This document shows, in pieces, positions 1 to 7,316 of a DNA stretch of 7,316 nucleotides. The stretch lies in the IMG/VR virus record IMGVR_UViG_2684622618_000023, one strand, 5' to 3'. The stretch's first letter is position 1; the number at the start of each line of letters is the position of its first letter. Both the position numbers and the translations under genes were made by a program. Source of the DNA: a virus. Taxonomy: Duplodnaviria; Heunggongvirae; Uroviricota; Caudoviricetes. The notes beneath the pieces are model-generated. The model saw only the letters and a program-made list of their open reading frames with translations, did no database searches and was not told the origin of the DNA.

Positions 1-59
1 TTTGAACCAGCGACCTGGCGATTATGAGTCGCTCGCTCTCACCACTGAGCTAAAGGGCC
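1..59 (-). tRNA. tRNA with CAU anticodon (tRNA-Ile2/ileX-like, or elongator Met), 3' part truncated by the left window edge
   Basis: Reverse complement of 1-59 reads GGCCCTT-TA-GCTC-AGTGGTGA-GAGC-G-AGCGA-CTCATAA-TCGCC-AGGTC-GCTGG-TTCAAA: acceptor 5' strand, D arm, anticodon arm with loop CU-CAU-AA, variable loop, T-stem 5' strand and start of the T-loop, then the window ends. The anticodon arm and T-stem closely resemble E. coli tRNA-Ile2 (ileX type) as I remember it; identity cannot be fixed without the missing 3' acceptor strand. Confidence 0.8.
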
Positions 60-198: not shown

Positions 199-645
199 TC
201 AAAAAGCAATAACTTTTTNNNNNNNNNNNNNNNNNNNNNNNNNNNNNNNNNNNNNNNNNNNNNNNNNNTAACGCTGACTCAGAACATTGAGCAGCCCGGG
301 ATAACCTGCCAGTACTTCACCAATAACCCTGTCGATTATTAACGCCTCTGAATCGGTACAATGCACCAGCCAGCTTTTTTGCTTGCCGTTGATCATATCC
401 CGCAAAAAAGCCTCAAGTTTAGGTTTGTCCAGACCTGCTTTTTTCATCCTCCGGAGCGCCTCGTTAATTGCCGTTTTTGTCAGCTTTTTAGAGGTCAGCA
501 ACTGGTTGAACATATTTCCCGTCTTACCGCCGCCAATATACGACCAGCGCCCCCACATACGTAGTTTCCCCTGAATCCAGACACTTTCCAGCGTGGTGAG
601 ACGAAGGTGCTCTCCGCTTTTTCCTGTGTTCGTTGGGTAAATCAT
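199..645 (-). CDS. Putative lambdoid late-gene antiterminator (Q-like) protein; 3' end uncertain because the frame runs through the N-run
   Basis: ATG at 645-643 overlaps the TGA stop of the upstream YbcO-like gene (ATGA), with AAAGGA about 10 nt upstream. About 125 codons of clean, protein-like sequence (MIYPTNTGKSGEHLRL...GYPGLLNVLSQR) before the N-run. The Q assignment is mainly positional (last gene before terminator and tRNA, after nin genes). The 40 codons upstream of this ATG in the supplied 199..765 ORF are Arg-rich, lie inside the neighbouring gene and are unlikely to be translated. The stop at 199-201 is only valid if the gap length is exact. Confidence 0.45.
   Translation of the reverse strand: MIYPTNTGKSGEHLRLTTLESVWIQGKLRMWGRWSYIGGGKTGNMFNQLLTSKKLTKTAINEALRRMKKAGLDKPKLEAFLRDMINGKQKSWLVHCTDSEALIIDRVIGEVLAGYPGLLNVLSQRXXXXXXXXXXXXXXXXXXKVIAF
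219..268. other. Run of 50 N (assembly gap or masked bases) inside the 3' part of the Q-like gene
   Basis: Literal n characters at 219-268. Confidence 0.97.
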
Positions 646-932
646 AAATAACCGTCCTTTCTCCAGATCTCTTGTGTGCGAAAAACACCTTCTGCATGCA
701 TCAGGCGCAATTCTTCTTTGGTGTAATCGCTGGTTTTTACTCTCCCGTCGATTAAATCGTGGCATGAGTTACAGGCAATCGCTGCCTGCATATCGTGTGG
801 CTTTATCGCTGTTCCGCACGTTCCCGCCAGCCTGTAATGCGCCAGCACAGAGGTTTCGGGATTGTGATTGCAGTAGCCAGGGATTCTGATCTGGCATATC
901 TGGCCTTTAGCCGCTTTACGTAAATTCACCAT
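642..932 (-). CDS. ybcO: YbcO-like (DUF1364-type) Cys-rich phage nin-region protein, putative nuclease
   Basis: 96-aa ORF MVNLRKAAKGQICQIRIPGYCNHNPETSVLAHYRLAGTCGT...ACNSCHD..., which matches in length and pattern my recollection of E. coli DLP12 YbcO (RKAARG..C.VRIPG.CN.NPETSVLAH.RL.G.CGT..KP.D..A.IAC..CHD). Start ATG 932-930 shares one base with the TAA of the upstream gene. Confidence 0.7.
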   Translation of the reverse strand: MVNLRKAAKGQICQIRIPGYCNHNPETSVLAHYRLAGTCGTAIKPHDMQAAIACNSCHDLIDGRVKTSDYTKEELRLMHAEGVFRTQEIWRKDGYL

Positions 933-1531
933 TACGCAAACTCCAGTAGTTGTGCGGCCACATTTTCAACTTCCTCCTGAGAGGAGAATTTACGGAACAG
1001 AATCCAGTTCCACAGCACATTCAGTACAGATTTATAAACCTGCTGAAACTCGACTTCGTCCATATTCGCAAAAGCGATGGATTTTGCCCGACGCCCACGG
1101 CTACCGTCCGGATAAATATGCTCGGTGTAAAATCCGGCCTGAATGGTTACCCACTCGCGGAAAGCCTCAAACGACTTTAGCAACGCCGTATCCCGGGTTC
1201 TACGAGTCGCAACGGTGTTAAGGTATTGCTCTGCGGCATCACTCAGGGCTGGCGTGTGTTCCCGACCAACTGATTCGCACAGGTAATCAACGAAACCAGA
1301 CAGCAGTTCTCGTTCGCGAGGCGTGATCGCCCCACCGACCGGAGTCCAGTAATCGAATCCCAGTTGCAGGAGTTTGAAAAAACGCTTGTGGAATGCGTAG
1401 TTACGCACACGCTTAAAATCTGCGTGTATCCACTCACCTATTTTGATTTGATGCAGAAAATCGCAACTCTCCGGCGTCGCCGGGAGAAGTAAACCAGAAG
1501 AAGTTTGTTTGACCAGTTGTATATGCGCCAT
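932..1531 (-). CDS. Lambdoid nin-region protein, resembles DUF1367-type phage proteins
   Basis: 199-aa ORF starting at ATG 1531-1529 with GAGAG about 9 nt upstream; stop TAA 934-932. Sequence (MAHIQLVKQTSSGLLLPATPES...EFQQVYKSVLNVLWNWILFRKFSSQEEVENVAAQLLEFA) matches what I recall of DUF1367 proteins found next to ybcO-like genes in lambdoid prophages; family name from memory, unverified. Confidence 0.65.
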   Translation of the reverse strand: MAHIQLVKQTSSGLLLPATPESCDFLHQIKIGEWIHADFKRVRNYAFHKRFFKLLQLGFDYWTPVGGAITPRERELLSGFVDYLCESVGREHTPALSDAAEQYLNTVATRRTRDTALLKSFEAFREWVTIQAGFYTEHIYPDGSRGRRAKSIAFANMDEVEFQQVYKSVLNVLWNWILFRKFSSQEEVENVAAQLLEFA

Positions 1532-1950
1532 TTCTCAATCTCTCGATGGCGCAGTGCAGCAGATGCCAGTTGTTCAAGCTAGCACGCAAATTGTAAACCA
1601 GAATGCCAGGAAAAAACAAAACCCGCCGAAGCTGGTTGTGTGCGGTTGCGTTGAAGTCTCCTAGCCAAAGAGTAGCGGTGACCACTCCCCGCCGATAATC
1701 TTAGTTGTTTAATTTCGTAAGCTAACTAGGCTAAAAGCTCTCTGTTGTCTGCCTGTTGTACAATTAACAAAATGAACAACGAACTAGATATACCAACGCC
1801 AGAATGGTGCAACAAATCCCAAACAACACAGCAATGCAACAATAACATATGTTATTTTCCTCTCACGGGATTCAGTCCTGAATTCTCATAAAGCTAATCT
1901 TTTTTTAAAAACATACTGTTAGATCACATGCACTTTCTTTCTTAACATCG

Positions 1951-1978
1951 TTGACTTCGCATGCGAAGCGTTTAAAAT
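1951..1978 (+). promoter_or_regulatory. Candidate sigma70 promoter for the GHKL operon
   Basis: TTGACT at 1951-1956, 16-nt spacer, TAAAAT at 1973-1978; predicted start near 1985, about 45 nt upstream of ATG 2031; AT-rich upstream region. Pattern match only. Confidence 0.4.
1955..1968. promoter_or_regulatory. Perfect 14-bp palindrome CTTCGCATGCGAAG overlapping the -35/spacer of the candidate GHKL promoter (possible operator)
   Basis: cttcgcatgcgaag at 1955-1968 is identical to its reverse complement. The palindrome itself is certain; a regulatory role is inferred from its position. Confidence 0.5.
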
Positions 1979-2030
1979 CAACAATTTGCACTTAAGGTAT
2001 TTATTTTCCCAAACACATAGAGAGTAAATT

Positions 2031-3422
2031 ATGACTGAGAACACGACTCCAACAGCAGACTTTAGTCCTAGTAAAAGATTTTTTGTAAGTATGCTAACTC
2101 GAGATATCGACTTAAACGATGCCATACTTGATCTGCTTGATAACTGCGTCGATGGGGCTTTACGTACAATAAAAGACACAAAAAAAACTTCAAAACCATA
2201 TGAAGGATTTTATGCGAAACTTACGATTAATAAAGATGTCTTTATTATAGAAGACAATTGCGGAGGTATCCCTAAAAGCTTCCGAGAATATGCTTTTAAA
2301 ATGGGACGACCCCATCAAAAAGAAGAAGAAAATGAAGGCACCGTTGGCGTCTATGGTATTGGTATGAAAAGAGCCATTTTTAAAATGGGTAGAGATTGCT
2401 CAATACAATCGAATAATCCCGATGGCGCATTCACTGTAGATATAACACCTGATTGGATCGATGGTGATGGTTGGAAAATACCGATGCACGAGAGTGACTA
2501 TGATAACAAAAATCCAACAGGCACAACTATAGAGATAAAAAAACTCCATTCTAATGTGGCACAAAAATTTAATGAGAGCACATATCTTACTGATCTCTTT
2601 TTACAGATAAAACACTCATTGTCATTTATTATTCAAAAAGGATTTAAAATAGAATTAAATGGAGTTGTTGTTGAACATAATCCGATTAACATCATAACTG
2701 ATCATTCTAAAATAGAACCATACATATATAAAGCTAAAATAGACGATGTTGATATCGATTTAGTTGTTGGCTTCTATAAAAATTTAGAAGATGACAATGA
2801 TGATGTTTTAGAAAAAAGGAGTTCTGATGATGCTGGATGGACTGTCATTTGCAATGACCGCGTTGTTCTATATTGTGATAAGACACATCTCACAGGTTGG
2901 GGCTTTGCTAATGTACCAAGGTTTCATACCCAATTTATAGCAATTTCTGGGGTTGTTCGCTTTACCAGTAAAAACCCAGAAAAATTACCAATAACAACAA
3001 CGAAACGAGGTGTCGATCTTAGTTCTACATTGTACAATGATGTACGAAATAAAATGATTGAAGGGATGATGCATTTTATTCGATTCACCAATCAGTGGAA
3101 AGGTGAGCATCTTGAAGAAGGGAAAAAATTACTTAAGTCAGCTCAGTCACATGAAGCTCAATCTTTATTTGAAATTACCCCACAATCAACTCCAGAAGAT
3201 AAAAAAAATAACTGGTCCAACCCTAATAGAAACAAAAATGAGTGGCGATATACACCTAAGCTGCCTACCCCAGTAAAAAAAAGCTCTACTGTACGAATAA
3301 TCTTCACCAGAGAGAAAGAAGATGTTAAAATTTTATCTAAATATTTCTTTGGACATGAAGATGCTAGCGCTTCTGATGTGGGGATGCAATGCTTTGATAC
3401 GGTGATTGAAGAGGTGAAGTGA
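2031..3422 (+). CDS. GHKL-superfamily (Bergerat-fold, MORC/MutL-like HATPase_c) ATPase, 463 aa
   Basis: ATG 2031 with AGAGAG upstream. N-terminal motifs in the canonical order: N-box DLLDNCVDGA (nt about 2130-2159), G1 box IEDNCGG (D at 2253), G2 box GVYGIGMKRA (MORC-like GxYGxGxK), motif IV PTGTTIEI. The remaining ~260 aa are of unassigned function (possibly an S5-like transducer); no HNH, PD-(D/E)xK or PLD motif was evident by eye. Confidence 0.85.
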   Translation: MTENTTPTADFSPSKRFFVSMLTRDIDLNDAILDLLDNCVDGALRTIKDTKKTSKPYEGFYAKLTINKDVFIIEDNCGGIPKSFREYAFKMGRPHQKEEENEGTVGVYGIGMKRAIFKMGRDCSIQSNNPDGAFTVDITPDWIDGDGWKIPMHESDYDNKNPTGTTIEIKKLHSNVAQKFNESTYLTDLFLQIKHSLSFIIQKGFKIELNGVVVEHNPINIITDHSKIEPYIYKAKIDDVDIDLVVGFYKNLEDDNDDVLEKRSSDDAGWTVICNDRVVLYCDKTHLTGWGFANVPRFHTQFIAISGVVRFTSKNPEKLPITTTKRGVDLSSTLYNDVRNKMIEGMMHFIRFTNQWKGEHLEEGKKLLKSAQSHEAQSLFEITPQSTPEDKKNNWSNPNRNKNEWRYTPKLPTPVKKSSTVRIIFTREKEDVKILSKYFFGHEDASASDVGMQCFDTVIEEVK

Positions 3423-4411
3423 TGTCTGGACAATACATTCCCTATCACTTAAGGCATAATAAGTCTATTGATAGAGAGATTTTTCTCGAAAGCCTAAACC
3501 TCTTAAGCAAAAGACTAAATATTCAAGAATATACATATATAGGTTTTGGTGGTCCGATGCTTGAAGATTTTAGAATCATGCATAATCGTATCGCTCTTTC
3601 TGATATGATTTCTCTCGAAGAACAAGAGTCTACTCACATCAGACAAAAATATAATTTGCCTTATAATTGTATTGATTGTAAGCTAATATCAGCTCATGAC
3701 TTTATTCTTGATTATAGTTTTTCTAAACCATCAATAACATGGTTAGACTATGCCTCCCCGAAAAAAATACAAACGGATCTAGATGATATACACTTACTAA
3801 GTACTAAAGTAAGCTCTTTTGATATTTTGAAGGTCACCTTCCCCATAAATCCTAGTTCTTATTACCAACGTAGAGTTGGAGAAAGTTTAGATATTTTTAA
3901 AGAAGCTTTTATTAATTCATTAAAATCATTGCTTGGGAAAAAGTATCTTGATTTTAATCTTCAGATATCAAATGCAGATCTTTCAGATCGTAAGATTAAA
4001 GCTCTTTTAATACGAATTATTACAAACGCTTTTAGATCAGCAATAGAACGTGGTCTTTCAGGACGTAAGGATAAGATTCAGTATTACCCATTATCCTTAA
4101 ATCAATATAATGATGGCAGTCATACCATGTTGACAATATCAGGTTTTTTCTCCTCAGAACAAGAATATATAGAGTTATCTAAGGCATGCGACCTTTCTAA
4201 CTGGCAATTTTATTCAACAAATTGGGAAGACGTGCAAGAAATAGCAATACCAACACTAACAATTAAAGAAAAGATAAATTTAGATAGTAAACTGCCTGAT
4301 AAAGAAGCATATCAGGCAGCCGCTGAAGAGTTCTCTTTAAACGAAAATGAACGGGATAACTATTATAAATACTATAGGTTATACCCTAACTTCCAAAGAA
4401 TTATGGTTTAA
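3422..4411 (+). CDS. Hypothetical protein (~329 aa), co-operonic partner of the GHKL ATPase; no recognisable family
   Basis: ATG 3422-3424 shares its A with the TGA stop (3420-3422) of the GHKL gene; GAGG at 3411-3414 gives 7-nt spacing. The supplied ORF begins 3 nt earlier at GTG 3419, which has poorer spacing. Ends TAA 4409-4411. Same AT-rich composition and codon usage as the GHKL gene. No catalytic motif could be assigned with confidence; weak D-x-K candidates such as IDCK are not persuasive. Confidence 0.8.
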   Translation: MSGQYIPYHLRHNKSIDREIFLESLNLLSKRLNIQEYTYIGFGGPMLEDFRIMHNRIALSDMISLEEQESTHIRQKYNLPYNCIDCKLISAHDFILDYSFSKPSITWLDYASPKKIQTDLDDIHLLSTKVSSFDILKVTFPINPSSYYQRRVGESLDIFKEAFINSLKSLLGKKYLDFNLQISNADLSDRKIKALLIRIITNAFRSAIERGLSGRKDKIQYYPLSLNQYNDGSHTMLTISGFFSSEQEYIELSKACDLSNWQFYSTNWEDVQEIAIPTLTIKEKINLDSKLPDKEAYQAAAEEFSLNENERDNYYKYYRLYPNFQRIMV

Positions 4412-5530
4412 ATATTCGGGCTGTACTCTTTTATTTAATAAATTGTACAGCCCCTTTAATATATATTCAGCAACTATTGGTGACACGCTATTTCCTATTT
4501 GTCTGAAACTATGCCATTTAGTTACATGAAAGCGAAACCAATCAGGGAAGCCTTGTAATCTAGCAGCTTCTCTTGGTGTAATCACTCTTGGATGATAAGG
4601 GTGGATCGGCCTGACGGCTTGAAAGCTTCCTTTATCTCTAGCGGTTCCCGCCCTTAAAGTCGGGCAAAAACCATTTGGATCTAATCTTGTAGATCTTGAA
4701 ATTTTATCAGTTTCCCCAAAAGATAAGGAAGCATAACGCTCTTGGACGATTTTGCTATGTAATGTTCCGGTACATCCAGATATGATATTATTTTTTAACT
4801 TAGCGATCGATTCTGTATCACCAACATTCCGAGGGATCTGCCCCCATAATTTTTCATAAAATCCCCCTTTTCGATCTTTTTTAATTGTTCGCCAACTCTC
4901 AGAGTCTGATTGCCAATTGGCATCGATAATATCTGGTAATCCATACAAAGCATCTTTTACAGTAACCGGATCAATCATTTTAGGCATAAATACTTCATCT
5001 GAAATATCAAGCTTCAATGATTTTTTTACACCGATAAAAAAATATCTAGTTCGAATAGTTGGAGCACCATAATCAGATGCTTTTACCTTGATGGGATCAA
5101 GAATATCATAATCACCGCTAACCAAATTAAATGCTTTATTTCTAATGCCAGAATATTTCTCTTGCATAATACCTGGAACATTTTCTGCCAAAAAGAATAA
5201 TGGCTGTAATTCTGATACTAAACGGTAGAAATGCATGTAAAGCTGATTCCTGCTATCATCAGGATTCCCCTTGCCTATTGAACTAAATCCTTGGCACGGA
5301 GGACCGCCAATAATACCATCTATGGGCATATCGTTTTTAAAAAAACCCTTAATTATTTCTGCATTTAGTAAAGAAACATCTTCTTGGACGTGCAAACTTC
5401 TTGGAAAATTAATTGCGTGAGTATTAATAGCATGTTGATCAATTTCAACTGCCATTTTAACATCAAATCCAGCACGTGCAGCACCAAGACTTAGACCTCC
5501 AACGCCAGAAAACAAATCTATTACATTCAT
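4379..5530 (-). CDS. DNA (cytosine-5)-methyltransferase, Dcm/M.HhaI-type, 383 aa
   Basis: Canonical C5-MTase motifs in order: motif I DLFSGVGG at the N-terminus (AdoMet binding), motif IV GGPPCQGFS (catalytic Cys codon at 5294-5296), motif VI ENVPG, an RTRYF region (motif VIII-like), and C-terminal GNSVSP (motif X). Start ATG 5530-5528; stop TAA 4381-4379. Confidence 0.9.
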   Translation of the reverse strand: MNVIDLFSGVGGLSLGAARAGFDVKMAVEIDQHAINTHAINFPRSLHVQEDVSLLNAEIIKGFFKNDMPIDGIIGGPPCQGFSSIGKGNPDDSRNQLYMHFYRLVSELQPLFFLAENVPGIMQEKYSGIRNKAFNLVSGDYDILDPIKVKASDYGAPTIRTRYFFIGVKKSLKLDISDEVFMPKMIDPVTVKDALYGLPDIIDANWQSDSESWRTIKKDRKGGFYEKLWGQIPRNVGDTESIAKLKNNIISGCTGTLHSKIVQERYASLSFGETDKISRSTRLDPNGFCPTLRAGTARDKGSFQAVRPIHPYHPRVITPREAARLQGFPDWFRFHVTKWHSFRQIGNSVSPIVAEYILKGLYNLLNKRVQPEYLNHNSLEVRV

Positions 5531-5562
5531 ATAGTTGCAACGTCTCTTATTAGTTTCTATGT

Positions 5563-5571
5563 ATTATAACA
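5563..5571 (-). promoter_or_regulatory. Candidate extended -10 promoter (TGtTATAAT) for the methyltransferase gene
   Basis: Minus strand reads TGTTATAAT (plus 5563-5571). It lies about 33 nt upstream of ATG 5530 with TAAGAGA between as a weak ribosome-binding site. No good -35, which is acceptable for an extended -10. Pattern match only. Confidence 0.4.
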
Positions 5572-5792
5572 CAACTGTTCTTGATGTTTTAACCCCATAA
5601 GATAACCTCATAAAGGCTATCCCTTGAAAATACCGGATCGCATAAATTTAATCTTTCAAAACTACTTGTCTATTAATCGAGCAATTTAAGGTTGTTTTAG
5701 TCATGTCGATACCGACATAGTTAACTAAACCCATTTCATCGTCCAACAAATGGGGGTAATACACTTTGATTTATAGTCGGGTGGGTTTTTCT

Positions 5793-5828
5793 CTATCTGC
5801 CTTTGGTGTTCATGCCCAAGGCAGATAG
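5793..5828. repeat. Inverted repeat, 11-bp arms (CTATCTGCCTT / AAGGCAGATAG) around a 14-nt spacer, in the non-coding region upstream of the MTase
   Basis: ctatctgcctt at 5793-5803 and aaggcagatag at 5818-5828 are exact reverse complements. No adjacent U-run on either strand, so not a classical intrinsic terminator. Confidence 0.6.
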
Positions 5829-5961
5829 CCTCAAGCACCCGCAGCAATTCTACTTAACTATCCTTTTCCCGCAAATCGTTTTTATCCCCAGCGGCAAATC
5901 GAATACACAACCAGCGCCACCGCCATCGCAATTCCTACCGTTGTGAATGCTTCAGGCCAGG

Positions 5962-6722: not shown

Positions 6723-6941
6723 TCAGTTTTCCTTATACGGATTAATTTTATTGTGCAGTGCGCTGAATGATTCCCATGTCACATCGGTATATAGCTCAAT
6801 AACTGGTTCAAATGTCCTTCCAATTATCCAGACCAGTAATAGCGGGGATATCGGTATCATCAACACTATAAACAGAATGAAAAACAGAAACTCTGTTGTT
6901 CTGCTCTTTCGTGGGTAATTTTTTTCTAAATAATGTTTCAT
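6723..6941 (-). CDS. Small predicted single-pass membrane protein, 72 aa
   Basis: ATG 6941-6939; a hydrophobic stretch FLFFILFIVLMIPISPLLLVWIIG consistent with one transmembrane helix; tight packing with the downstream gene. Confidence 0.6.
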   Translation of the reverse strand: MKHYLEKNYPRKSRTTEFLFFILFIVLMIPISPLLLVWIIGRTFEPVIELYTDVTWESFSALHNKINPYKEN

Positions 6942-6963: not shown

Positions 6964-7068
6964 CCTCCTGATGTTCTGAGGGTGCAGGAATCCCTCCGGT
7001 TAAGGATTTAATAAAAATCGTTTCTGATTTAAATCTTCAGTATTTAGTTGTTAGTTGGTTTATCGCCT

Positions 7069-7316
7069 TTATGCTTCAGCCTTATTTCGCAACCAGACAC
7101 AAACCGGGCCATCTTCCGTATCATGAATGGAACCAATAAACCAGCCATCGCCCTCTGGTCGTTCCGGTTCCCATGCAGAAATATCAGCATCACACGCATC
7201 AAGGTCAGCACATCCTTCATCTCTGAAGCAGAGGACGTATTGAAGATTATTTTCCTCCATCCAGGCGTTAAACTCTTCCGTTGAAATATATTCCCGACCA
7301 TCACAGAATTTTTCAT
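7069..7316 (-). CDS. 3' part of a gene for a strongly acidic protein; 5' end lies beyond the right window edge
   Basis: The frame is open from the window edge to TAA at 7071-7069 (...EKFCDGREYISTEEFNAWMEENNLQYVLCFRDEGCADLDACDADISAWEPERPEGDGWFIGSIHDTEDGPVCVWLRNKAEA). About 25% Asp+Glu in the last 63 residues. The internal ATG at 7260 lacks a well-spaced ribosome-binding site, so the gene probably starts outside the window. Confidence 0.55.
   Translation of the reverse strand, partial: EKFCDGREYISTEEFNAWMEENNLQYVLCFRDEGCADLDACDADISAWEPERPEGDGWFIGSIHDTEDGPVCVWLRNKAEA

Follow-up and report, generated by a model that had tools for sequence, protein, structure and literature searches.

A prophage-borne trio encoding a MORC-type ATPase, a methyltransferase-fold partner, and a Dcm-type methyltransferase as a candidate restriction-modification-like module

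Do three tightly packed, AT-rich genes in a lambdoid prophage act together as a self-contained defense module, or does a solitary phage methylase lie beside a pair of genes with which it has nothing to do? The question is raised by a stretch of 7,316 nucleotides (nt) of the IMG/VR virus record IMGVR_UViG_2684622618_000023 (Caudoviricetes), which was analyzed as a whole and is referred to here as the window. It carries three open reading frames (ORFs) at positions 2031 to 3422 (plus strand; 463 amino acids [aa]), 3419 to 4411 (plus strand; 330 aa), and 4379 to 5530 (minus strand; 383 aa), which encode a MORC-type ATPase, a partner protein, and a C5-cytosine DNA methyltransferase (MTase) of the Dcm type, respectively. 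The original prediction, made from the sequence, had proposed that the ATPase and its partner are the restriction or effector arm of a new restriction-modification-like system in which the MTase protects self DNA, and had offered as an alternative that the MTase is an orphan next to an independent two-gene system. The analysis described below revealed genuine conservation of the trio as a unit, as opposed to a chance neighborhood. With regard to function, we lean, cautiously, toward viewing the trio as prophage cargo that constitutes a self-contained, ATP-dependent module of a restriction-modification-like kind, in which the Dcm enzyme would mark self DNA and a complex of the MORC-type ATPase and its partner would act on unmarked DNA.

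The three genes and their products

All three ORFs are complete and abut one another, as the original prediction had stated. The MTase gene (4379 to 5530, minus strand) converges on the partner gene, and the two overlap at their 3' ends by exactly the 33 bp that had been claimed (4379 to 4411, between the ORF ends at 4411 and 4379). The full set of Dcm-type signature motifs ascribed to the 383-aa MTase was also recovered, i.e., DLFSGVGG, GGPPCQGFS (with the catalytic Cys79), ENV, RLQGFPD, and GNSVSP. The protein matched PF00145 over profile positions 1 to 322 of 324 (E=2.6e-61), as well as TIGR00675 and the PADLOC model MTase_II (2e-98), and over residues 1 to 367 it was essentially identical to a solved structure, PDB 3G7U (E=1e-254). 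By prediction, it is a complete and intact C5 enzyme.

The 463-aa ATPase (2031 to 3422, plus strand) matched PF13589 (HATPase_c_3) in Pfam with an E value of 2.9e-9 and, weakly, HATPase_c. Its GHKL motifs do stand in canonical order (DLLDNCVDG; DNCGGI at residues 75 to 80; GVYGIGMKRA at residues 106 to 115; and G164-T165), and they were invariant or nearly so among 59 homologues; the N-box reads D34-x2-D37-N38-x2-D41-G42. An S5 domain is present, and its lysine (K325 in TTTKRG) is invariant in the family. Residues 269 to 279 (GWTVICNDRVV, with G269 and R277 invariant) fit, when matched by eye rather than with the authors' profile, the S5 signature GhXhhpXXRhl, which Iyer, Abhiman, and Aravind gave as diagnostic of MORC proteins in their 2008 study (PMC2292703). 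The best structural matches of the ATPase were the eukaryotic proteins MORC3, MORC2, and SMCHD1, over 273 to 303 residues of the GHKL+S5 module. The label "MORC-like" used in the original prediction is thus supported by both fold and motif. The last 45 residues (419 to 463) form a basic strand followed by two helices, a strand-helix-helix pattern that may serve DNA binding or dimerization; a Pfam scan of nine ATPase tails at E<=10 returned no ribbon-helix-helix or other domain. Searches of NCBIfam and of PDB sequences with the ATPase and the partner yielded nothing useful.

The start of the partner gene lies in the junction ...GTG AAG TGA TGT..., where the ATPase stop codon occupies 3420 to 3422 and either the GTG at 3419 or the ATG at 3422 could initiate translation. 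Because RefSeq and all homologues use the ATG (329 aa, beginning "MSG"), we place the gene at 3422 to 4411 on the plus strand. Translational coupling of the partner to the ATPase, as had been proposed, holds in the form of a one-base overlap (TGATG), whereas the proposed length of 330 aa is corrected to 329 aa. Partner residues are numbered here from the ATG at 3422.

The partner had been regarded as an unknown protein, which it is not, since it matched PF20553 (Methyltransf_35) with an E value of 2e-89. Its fold, assigned with confidence, is that of a class-I S-adenosylmethionine (SAM)-dependent methyltransferase, Rossmann-like and seven-stranded, with a C-terminal helical region. The closest structural relatives were RNA and nucleic-acid methyltransferases, and a Foldseek search of BFVD returned generic methyltransferases only. 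The motifs are noncanonical: IGFGG (residues 40 to 44, motif I) follows strand 1, SLEE (64 to 67, motif II) lies at the acidic end of strand 2, and WLDY (107 to 110, motif IV-like) follows strand 4, where it occupies the position of the (D/N)PP(Y/F) motif of amino-methyltransferases. Across 74 diverse members, G43, E66, and D109 of these motifs were invariant or nearly so, and the other positions conserved to this degree were R11, K14, R18, Y39, R74, W107, T139, Y229, and E283. Conservation of this kind suggests that the partner binds SAM and handles nucleic acid.

When 13 homologues of the partner were scanned leniently against Pfam and NCBIfam, only PF20553 was returned, and sequence methods linked the partner to no other family and to no PDB chain. 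The PF20553 family comprises 2,215 clusters at 50% identity (E<=0.001), and the members of the top 150 clusters were nearly all stand-alone proteins of 320 to 345 aa, with no fusions. Public records name the three products "ATP-binding protein," "O-methyltransferase" or "hypothetical," and "DNA cytosine methyltransferase"; nothing that we found backs the "O-" in the name given to the partner. In the partner, D231 and E283-K284 were weighed as a possible PD-(D/E)xK nuclease motif, which was rejected because E283-K284 lies within a helix.

Linkage of the trio across genomes

A scan with an alignment of the ATPase, restricted to one genome per species, detected at least 569 relatives. From these, 80 loci were retrieved and scanned with hidden Markov models (HMMs) built for this analysis, and the census was based on 85 nonredundant loci. 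The ATPase gene led directly into a partner gene in 81 of the 85 loci, with a 4-nt overlap in 58. A Dcm gene was adjacent in 71 loci, where it lay upstream and co-directional (53 loci), convergent as in the window (15 loci), or downstream (3 loci); for 13 of the 15 convergent homologous loci the gap measured -50 to +58 nt, i.e., overlap or near-abutment recurs. These loci are distributed among Proteobacteria, Spirochaetes, Firmicutes, Cyanobacteria, Chloroflexi, Acidobacteria, Planctomycetes, and others, together with one Methanoregulaceae archaeon, and most of them are chromosomal and in a nonphage context. The arrangement of the window, with the ATPase and partner genes facing the Dcm gene, recurs for partner homologues in Leptospira, Yersinia, and Enterobacter. 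ATPase homologues of Methylomonas and of a Gemmatimonadetes bacterium (~45% identity) adjoin both a partner gene and a Dcm gene; that of Scytonema adjoins a partner gene, with Dcm absent nearby.

The identities of the ATPase and the partner were strongly correlated (Spearman coefficient, 0.82; 0 of 500 permutations gave a value as high), and those of the ATPase and the Dcm enzyme only weakly so (0.28). The linked Dcm enzymes belong mostly to one orthologous lineage, with at least 50% identity to the enterobacterial enzyme in ~55 of 71 loci; conservation of the partner is lower (median, 32%). The ATPase and the partner therefore co-evolve, and the gene trio, whose conservation across unrelated genomes had been named as a check, is a genuine unit found in many phyla.

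These data bear directly on the alternative of an orphan phage methylase that happens to neighbor an unrelated two-gene system. The MTase gene does lie on the opposite strand with a promoter-like site of its own, and loci that hold only the pair do occur. However, a Dcm gene is adjacent in 71 of 85 loci from many phyla, the gene order varies, and the Dcm enzymes are mostly of a single orthologous lineage. We therefore reject that explanation; moreover, the trio is shared by unrelated mobile elements. A chance association is, in our estimation, very improbable.

Several loci depart from the common layout. In filamentous cyanobacteria, the pair was found among housekeeping genes with no Dcm gene within 7 kb (L008, L012, L017, L020, L023, L042, L052, and L066). 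A convergent gene for a UvrD-like helicase is conserved in three of four cyanobacterial loci that lack the partner (L041, L053, L078, and L080). One further locus (L015) encodes two tandem ATPase paralogues together with the partner.

The most frequent companion of the trio is a gene for Vsr, adjacent in 35 of the 85 loci, which in some cases overlaps the start of the ATPase gene or comes immediately after the partner gene. It tracks Dcm, being present in 35 of the 71 loci with Dcm and in none of the ~9 cyanobacterial loci with the pair only. An HhH-GPD glycosylase gene takes the Vsr position in 6 to 7 loci and looks like an alternative T:G-repair accessory. Such base-excision glycosylase genes were seen beside Dcm, with Vsr absent and with Dcm of a second subfamily (~40% identity), at L029, L034, L056, L060, L077, L079, and L094. 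Clustering of 367 flanking ORFs otherwise produced sporadic families only, including HsdR-like proteins in four loci and HNH_2 proteins in three. Since no further flanking gene is conserved, the core consists of three genes, to which a T:G-repair enzyme that goes with Dcm is optionally added. In four loci (L010, L026, L047, and L050), an HsdR-like helicase-nuclease of ~1,010 aa (HSDR_N, ResIII, and SWI2_SNF2 domains) adjoins the trio; that of L026 starts 61 nt past the partner gene.

The presence of Vsr and of the glycosylase in its position would be expected if the module served to limit damage from 5-methylcytosine (5mC), with the MORC/MutL-like ATPase and the partner aiding the repair of T:G mismatches that arise from deaminated Dcm 5mC, as E. 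coli MutL stimulates Vsr; a functional interaction of MutL with Vsr is cited in PMC2292703. We regard this explanation as improbable. More than half of the loci, the window included, have neither Vsr nor a glycosylase, Vsr follows Dcm rather than the pair, and the pair is also found with an MmeI-like enzyme and DrmAB where there is no Dcm (see below). No role is left in such a scheme for a methyltransferase-fold partner. Furthermore, many Dcm genes are accompanied by Vsr in the absence of any GHKL protein.

Mobile carriers and prophage setting

Mobile carriers of the trio include lambdoid prophages of E. coli and Yersinia, and some copies occupy spots next to integrases. In the Pseudomonas inovirus PfAC20 (L091, PP058144; 13.6 kb), the whole trio is encoded co-directionally by ORF1 to ORF3 (280 to 3711), with HMM scores of 335, 227, and 368 bits. 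The same inovirus encodes a second, short cytosine methylase (ORF9). On plasmid pR24_2 of Microvirga terrae (L092, NZ_CP102847, 1 to 10981), a co-directional, abutting operon comprises, in order, an MmeI-like type IIL enzyme, the ATPase, the partner, DrmA, and a DUF1998 (DrmB-like) protein. The pair is bona fide there (480 and 212 bits with the HMMs), and no Dcm is present. Its position between the MmeI-like enzyme and DrmA/DrmB places the pair in the restriction-side slot of a methylation-based, DISARM-like operon, and the pair seems to be a movable submodule of methylation-based defense systems.

In E. coli O157:H7 and O111:H8, the trio is carried by a Rac-like lambdoid prophage, where it occupies the nin region. 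The GC content is 0.30 to 0.39 across positions ~1600 to 5800 of the window and 0.45 to 0.52 in both flanks, in agreement with the earlier observation that the genes are AT rich relative to the surrounding prophage DNA. The AT-rich insert, consisting of the three-gene module and two noncoding leaders, extends from 1532 to 5961 and is bounded by a DUF1367 gene (932 to 1531, minus strand) and a small phage ORF (5962 to 6219, minus strand). One flank carries genes for DUF1367, YbcO/DUF1364, and a Q-like DUF1133 protein as well as tRNAs, and the other carries ydaSTUV-type replication genes, recET, and intR. At >=99% identity, the 3.5-kb module occurs in 173 of 5426 complete E. coli genomes, always on the chromosome and exclusively in O157:H7, O111:H8, or their relatives; a search of the phage collection at the nucleotide level returned no match to it.

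Lambdoid phages often carry methylases in the nin region, and this location, together with the absence of a nuclease, would suit a two-methylase epigenetic or antirestriction module. In such a module, the partner would be an active nucleic-acid methyltransferase that is loaded or regulated by the MORC ATPase and that, with Dcm, modifies phage and host DNA (or RNA), thereby evading restriction or regulating genes, and there would be no restriction arm. The retention of the methyltransferase fold by the partner, its invariant residues where the SAM pocket and motif IV are expected, and its structural proximity to RNA and nucleic-acid methyltransferases all favor such an arrangement. Nevertheless, we consider it unlikely, because members are mostly chromosomal and nonphage in many phyla, because restriction-modification systems typically show the same gene orders, with the MTase gene first or with convergent genes that overlap at their ends, and because the pair sits in a DISARM-like operon already equipped with its own methylase. 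Moreover, known solitary methylases need no ATP-driven clamp.

Of the 173 E. coli carriers, only O157:H7 strain F6294 (L095, 6392 to 6895; window, ~3791 to 5830) has no MTase. A single deletion in this strain spans the entire Dcm gene and the part of the partner gene that encodes its C-terminal two-thirds, and the ATPase gene is intact. This co-loss fits co-dependence, though it is a single event. Removal of both genes by one deletion, tight linkage, and carriage on mobile elements would likewise be in keeping with a selfish addiction cassette with no real antiphage role, in which the pair becomes toxic once Dcm methylation is diluted and stabilizes the prophage or island by postsegregational killing. 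Classical Type II systems behave in this way. It is quite unlikely, in our judgment, that addiction is the whole function: it is compatible with defense, most addictive restriction-modification systems also restrict, and the cyanobacterial loci with the pair only speak against obligate toxicity.

The two leaders of the insert (1532 to 2030, ~500 nt; 5531 to 5961, ~430 nt) are AT rich and noncoding, with a promoter-like site by each gene start, and no controller (C-protein-like) gene or Rfam element was found. The sites, each with 10 of 12 matches to the consensus, are TTGACT-16-TAAAAT (1951 to 1978, plus strand), located ~50 nt upstream of the ATPase start, and TTAAAA-18-TATAAT with an upstream TG (5563 to 5592, minus strand), a consensus match only, just upstream of the MTase start. 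Promoter-like sites were no more numerous in the region than in shuffled sequences, and the ATPase-side site is a candidate by position alone.

Elsewhere in the window, positions 1 to 59 (minus strand) hold a tRNA gene whose 3' end is missing because the window starts within it (Rfam RF00005; 41.8 bits), which is annotated in complete genomes as tRNA-Ile of a prophage tRNA cluster and was missed by ARAGORN owing to the truncation. A run of 50 N at 219 to 268 masks part of the DUF1133 (Q-like) gene; the coordinate offset to L001 indicates that complete genomes have ~157 bases there. A 72-aa ORF at 6723 to 6941 (minus strand) matched phrog_1832 ("released from the phage upon host infection") and is a frameshifted DUF4014 pseudogene in RefSeq. 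The 15 best whole-window matches in E. coli all ended at 6971, and the remaining 345 bases (6972 to 7316, including phrog_1372 ORFs) differ from those prophage copies.

Possible mode of action and significance

The trio can plausibly be interpreted as restriction-modification-like. The Dcm-type MTase would methylate a fixed motif in the host and thereby mark self DNA. Given their translational coupling and co-evolution, the MORC-type ATPase and the partner would form one complex, in which the partner, with a methyltransferase-type pocket that probably binds SAM, would inspect or modify nucleic acid and the ATPase would dimerize upon ATP binding and clamp DNA. The target would be DNA without the Dcm mark, such as that of an infecting phage, and the block could consist of entrapment or compaction, as with eukaryotic MORCs. 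Alternatively, the DNA may be passed to a nuclease or helicase that some relatives encode nearby (Vsr-type, HNH, HsdR-like, or DrmAB) or that the host supplies. A more specific, nuclease-free version ("restriction by MORC") appears doubtful to us: the partner would read Dcm sites that lack 5mC, or lay a toxic or marking methyl group there, and so license the MORC clamp to entrap and compact the DNA and to silence replication and transcription. If this were true, the connection of MORC proteins with DNA methylation and the silencing of invading elements in eukaryotes would have a counterpart, and possibly its evolutionary origin, in prokaryotes.

Several observations weigh against a restriction-modification-like role. 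No nuclease fold or domain is recognizable in the ATPase or the partner, and the clustering of flanking ORFs revealed no conserved fourth gene or hidden nuclease gene near the trio; in many loci nothing further adjoins it. The evidence therefore falls short of classical restriction, and the proposal that the ATPase and partner are a restriction arm is not supported in its classical sense. The catalytic-base position of the ATPase N-box, as placed by motif spacing, is an invariant Asp (D34) instead of the usual Glu, so that ATP turnover may be slow. In ~9 cyanobacterial loci the pair has no Dcm within 7 kb, which sits uneasily with lethality of the pair on unmethylated DNA unless protection comes from an MTase encoded elsewhere; in the four cyanobacterial loci without a partner, the ATPase gene is followed by a longer Dcm-like gene (~430 aa). 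Evidence for a defense-island context is modest: among 102 neighboring proteins, defense models matched Type I restriction endonucleases (four), AriA (four), mad3 (four), HEC-01A (three), and Type IIG enzymes (two), which are raw counts. Finally, a study of strain EDL933 ascribed most of its phage resistance to OI-172 systems and left the trio locus unmentioned (PMC13463889).

Should the trio prove to be immune in function, a widespread system would be added to those known, with the ATPase in at least 569 species genomes and a partner family of ~2,200 clusters at 50% identity, and one that PADLOC 2.0 models miss although prophages of a major pathogen carry it. Its effector arm pairs a MORC-type clamp with a methyltransferase-shaped protein, and the mode of action of this arm could reveal a new route from a DNA-methylation mark to interference. 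It would also offer a tractable bacterial model for the coupling of MORC ATPases to DNA methylation in eukaryotes, which is poorly understood. If active in O157:H7 and O111:H8, the module would bear on the choice of therapeutic phages and on the transformability of strains.

Comparison with known systems

The statement that the trio belongs to no named defense system agrees with the PADLOC 2.0 results: no model, including those of Mza, other GHKL-containing systems, and restriction enzymes, matched the ATPase or the partner at E<=0.01. We found no paper on the trio, PF20553, or 3G7U in the literature searched, to which most subscription journals and REBASE were external, and novelty is therefore unproven. 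WonAB and VcSduA (PMC12137116) are unrelated, being an ABC ATPase with a nuclease and a GHKL-Shedu fusion, respectively.

The closest precedents are the MORC/paraMORC ATPases predicted by Iyer et al. in prokaryotic restriction-modification neighborhoods, often with cytosine methylases and Vsr and, in a minority of MORC neighborhoods, with methylases but no helicase (PMC2292703). Shared with these systems are a GHKL+S5 ATPase with intact motifs, linkage to cytosine methylases and Vsr, and residence in laterally mobile islands. Unlike the trio, they center, in the main text of that paper, on SF-II helicases and on restriction-fold, HNH, TIR, or fused nucleases, and a methyltransferase-fold partner was not found there. 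The HEF_HK/Response_reg_2 paraMORC system (Bellieny-Rabelo et al. 2021, PMC8011034) is similar in its upstream C5-MTase, HATPase_c_3 protein, and small alpha/beta partner, often with Vsr and sometimes with HNH_2 nearby, accessories that were also observed around the trio, but its partner is a CheY-like Response_reg_2 protein and its ATPase is histidine-kinase-like, with HEF_HK and a second HATPase_c domain. In Pfam searches, the window proteins had no match to PF19191 or PF19192, the families of that system.

With classical Type II systems of the Dcm type that carry Vsr, the trio has in common an intact C5-MTase, a convergent or MTase-first layout, an optional Vsr, and mobility. It differs in having no recognizable endonuclease; the putative effector is an ATP-requiring MORC clamp with a methyltransferase-like protein. 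In PADLOC, the MTase scored far better on Type II MTase models than on the DrmMII or DruM models. Like BREX and DISARM, the trio combines self-marking by a methylase with ATPases, and a relative of the pair lies in the operon that runs from an MmeI-like enzyme to DrmA and DrmB. BREX is not known to have a nuclease, and its methylase-fold protein PglX is required for both marking and defense. The window contains none of the signature genes of BREX, DISARM (DrmA, DrmB, DrmC, and DrmE), or Druantia (DruA to DruE).

No sequence relationship was detectable between the partner and methyltransferases of the RsmD, Trm1, and RlmI types, from which it also differs in the absence of prolines from WLDY and in extra N-terminal basic and C-terminal helical elements. 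Eukaryotic MORCs are ATP-dependent, dimerizing DNA clamps tied to silencing and DNA methylation. Unlike them and SMCHD1, the window ATPase lacks CW, coiled-coil, and hinge domains and ends instead in a short C-terminal tail; Asp occupies its catalytic-base position, and its associates are a bacterial Dcm and a methyltransferase-like protein. No PADLOC 2.0 model matches a MORC-signature ATPase combined with a PF20553 partner and a single Dcm lineage, yet the general MORC-linked theme was already predicted in 2008, and the trio is best seen as a distinct variation on that theme and not as a categorically new system.

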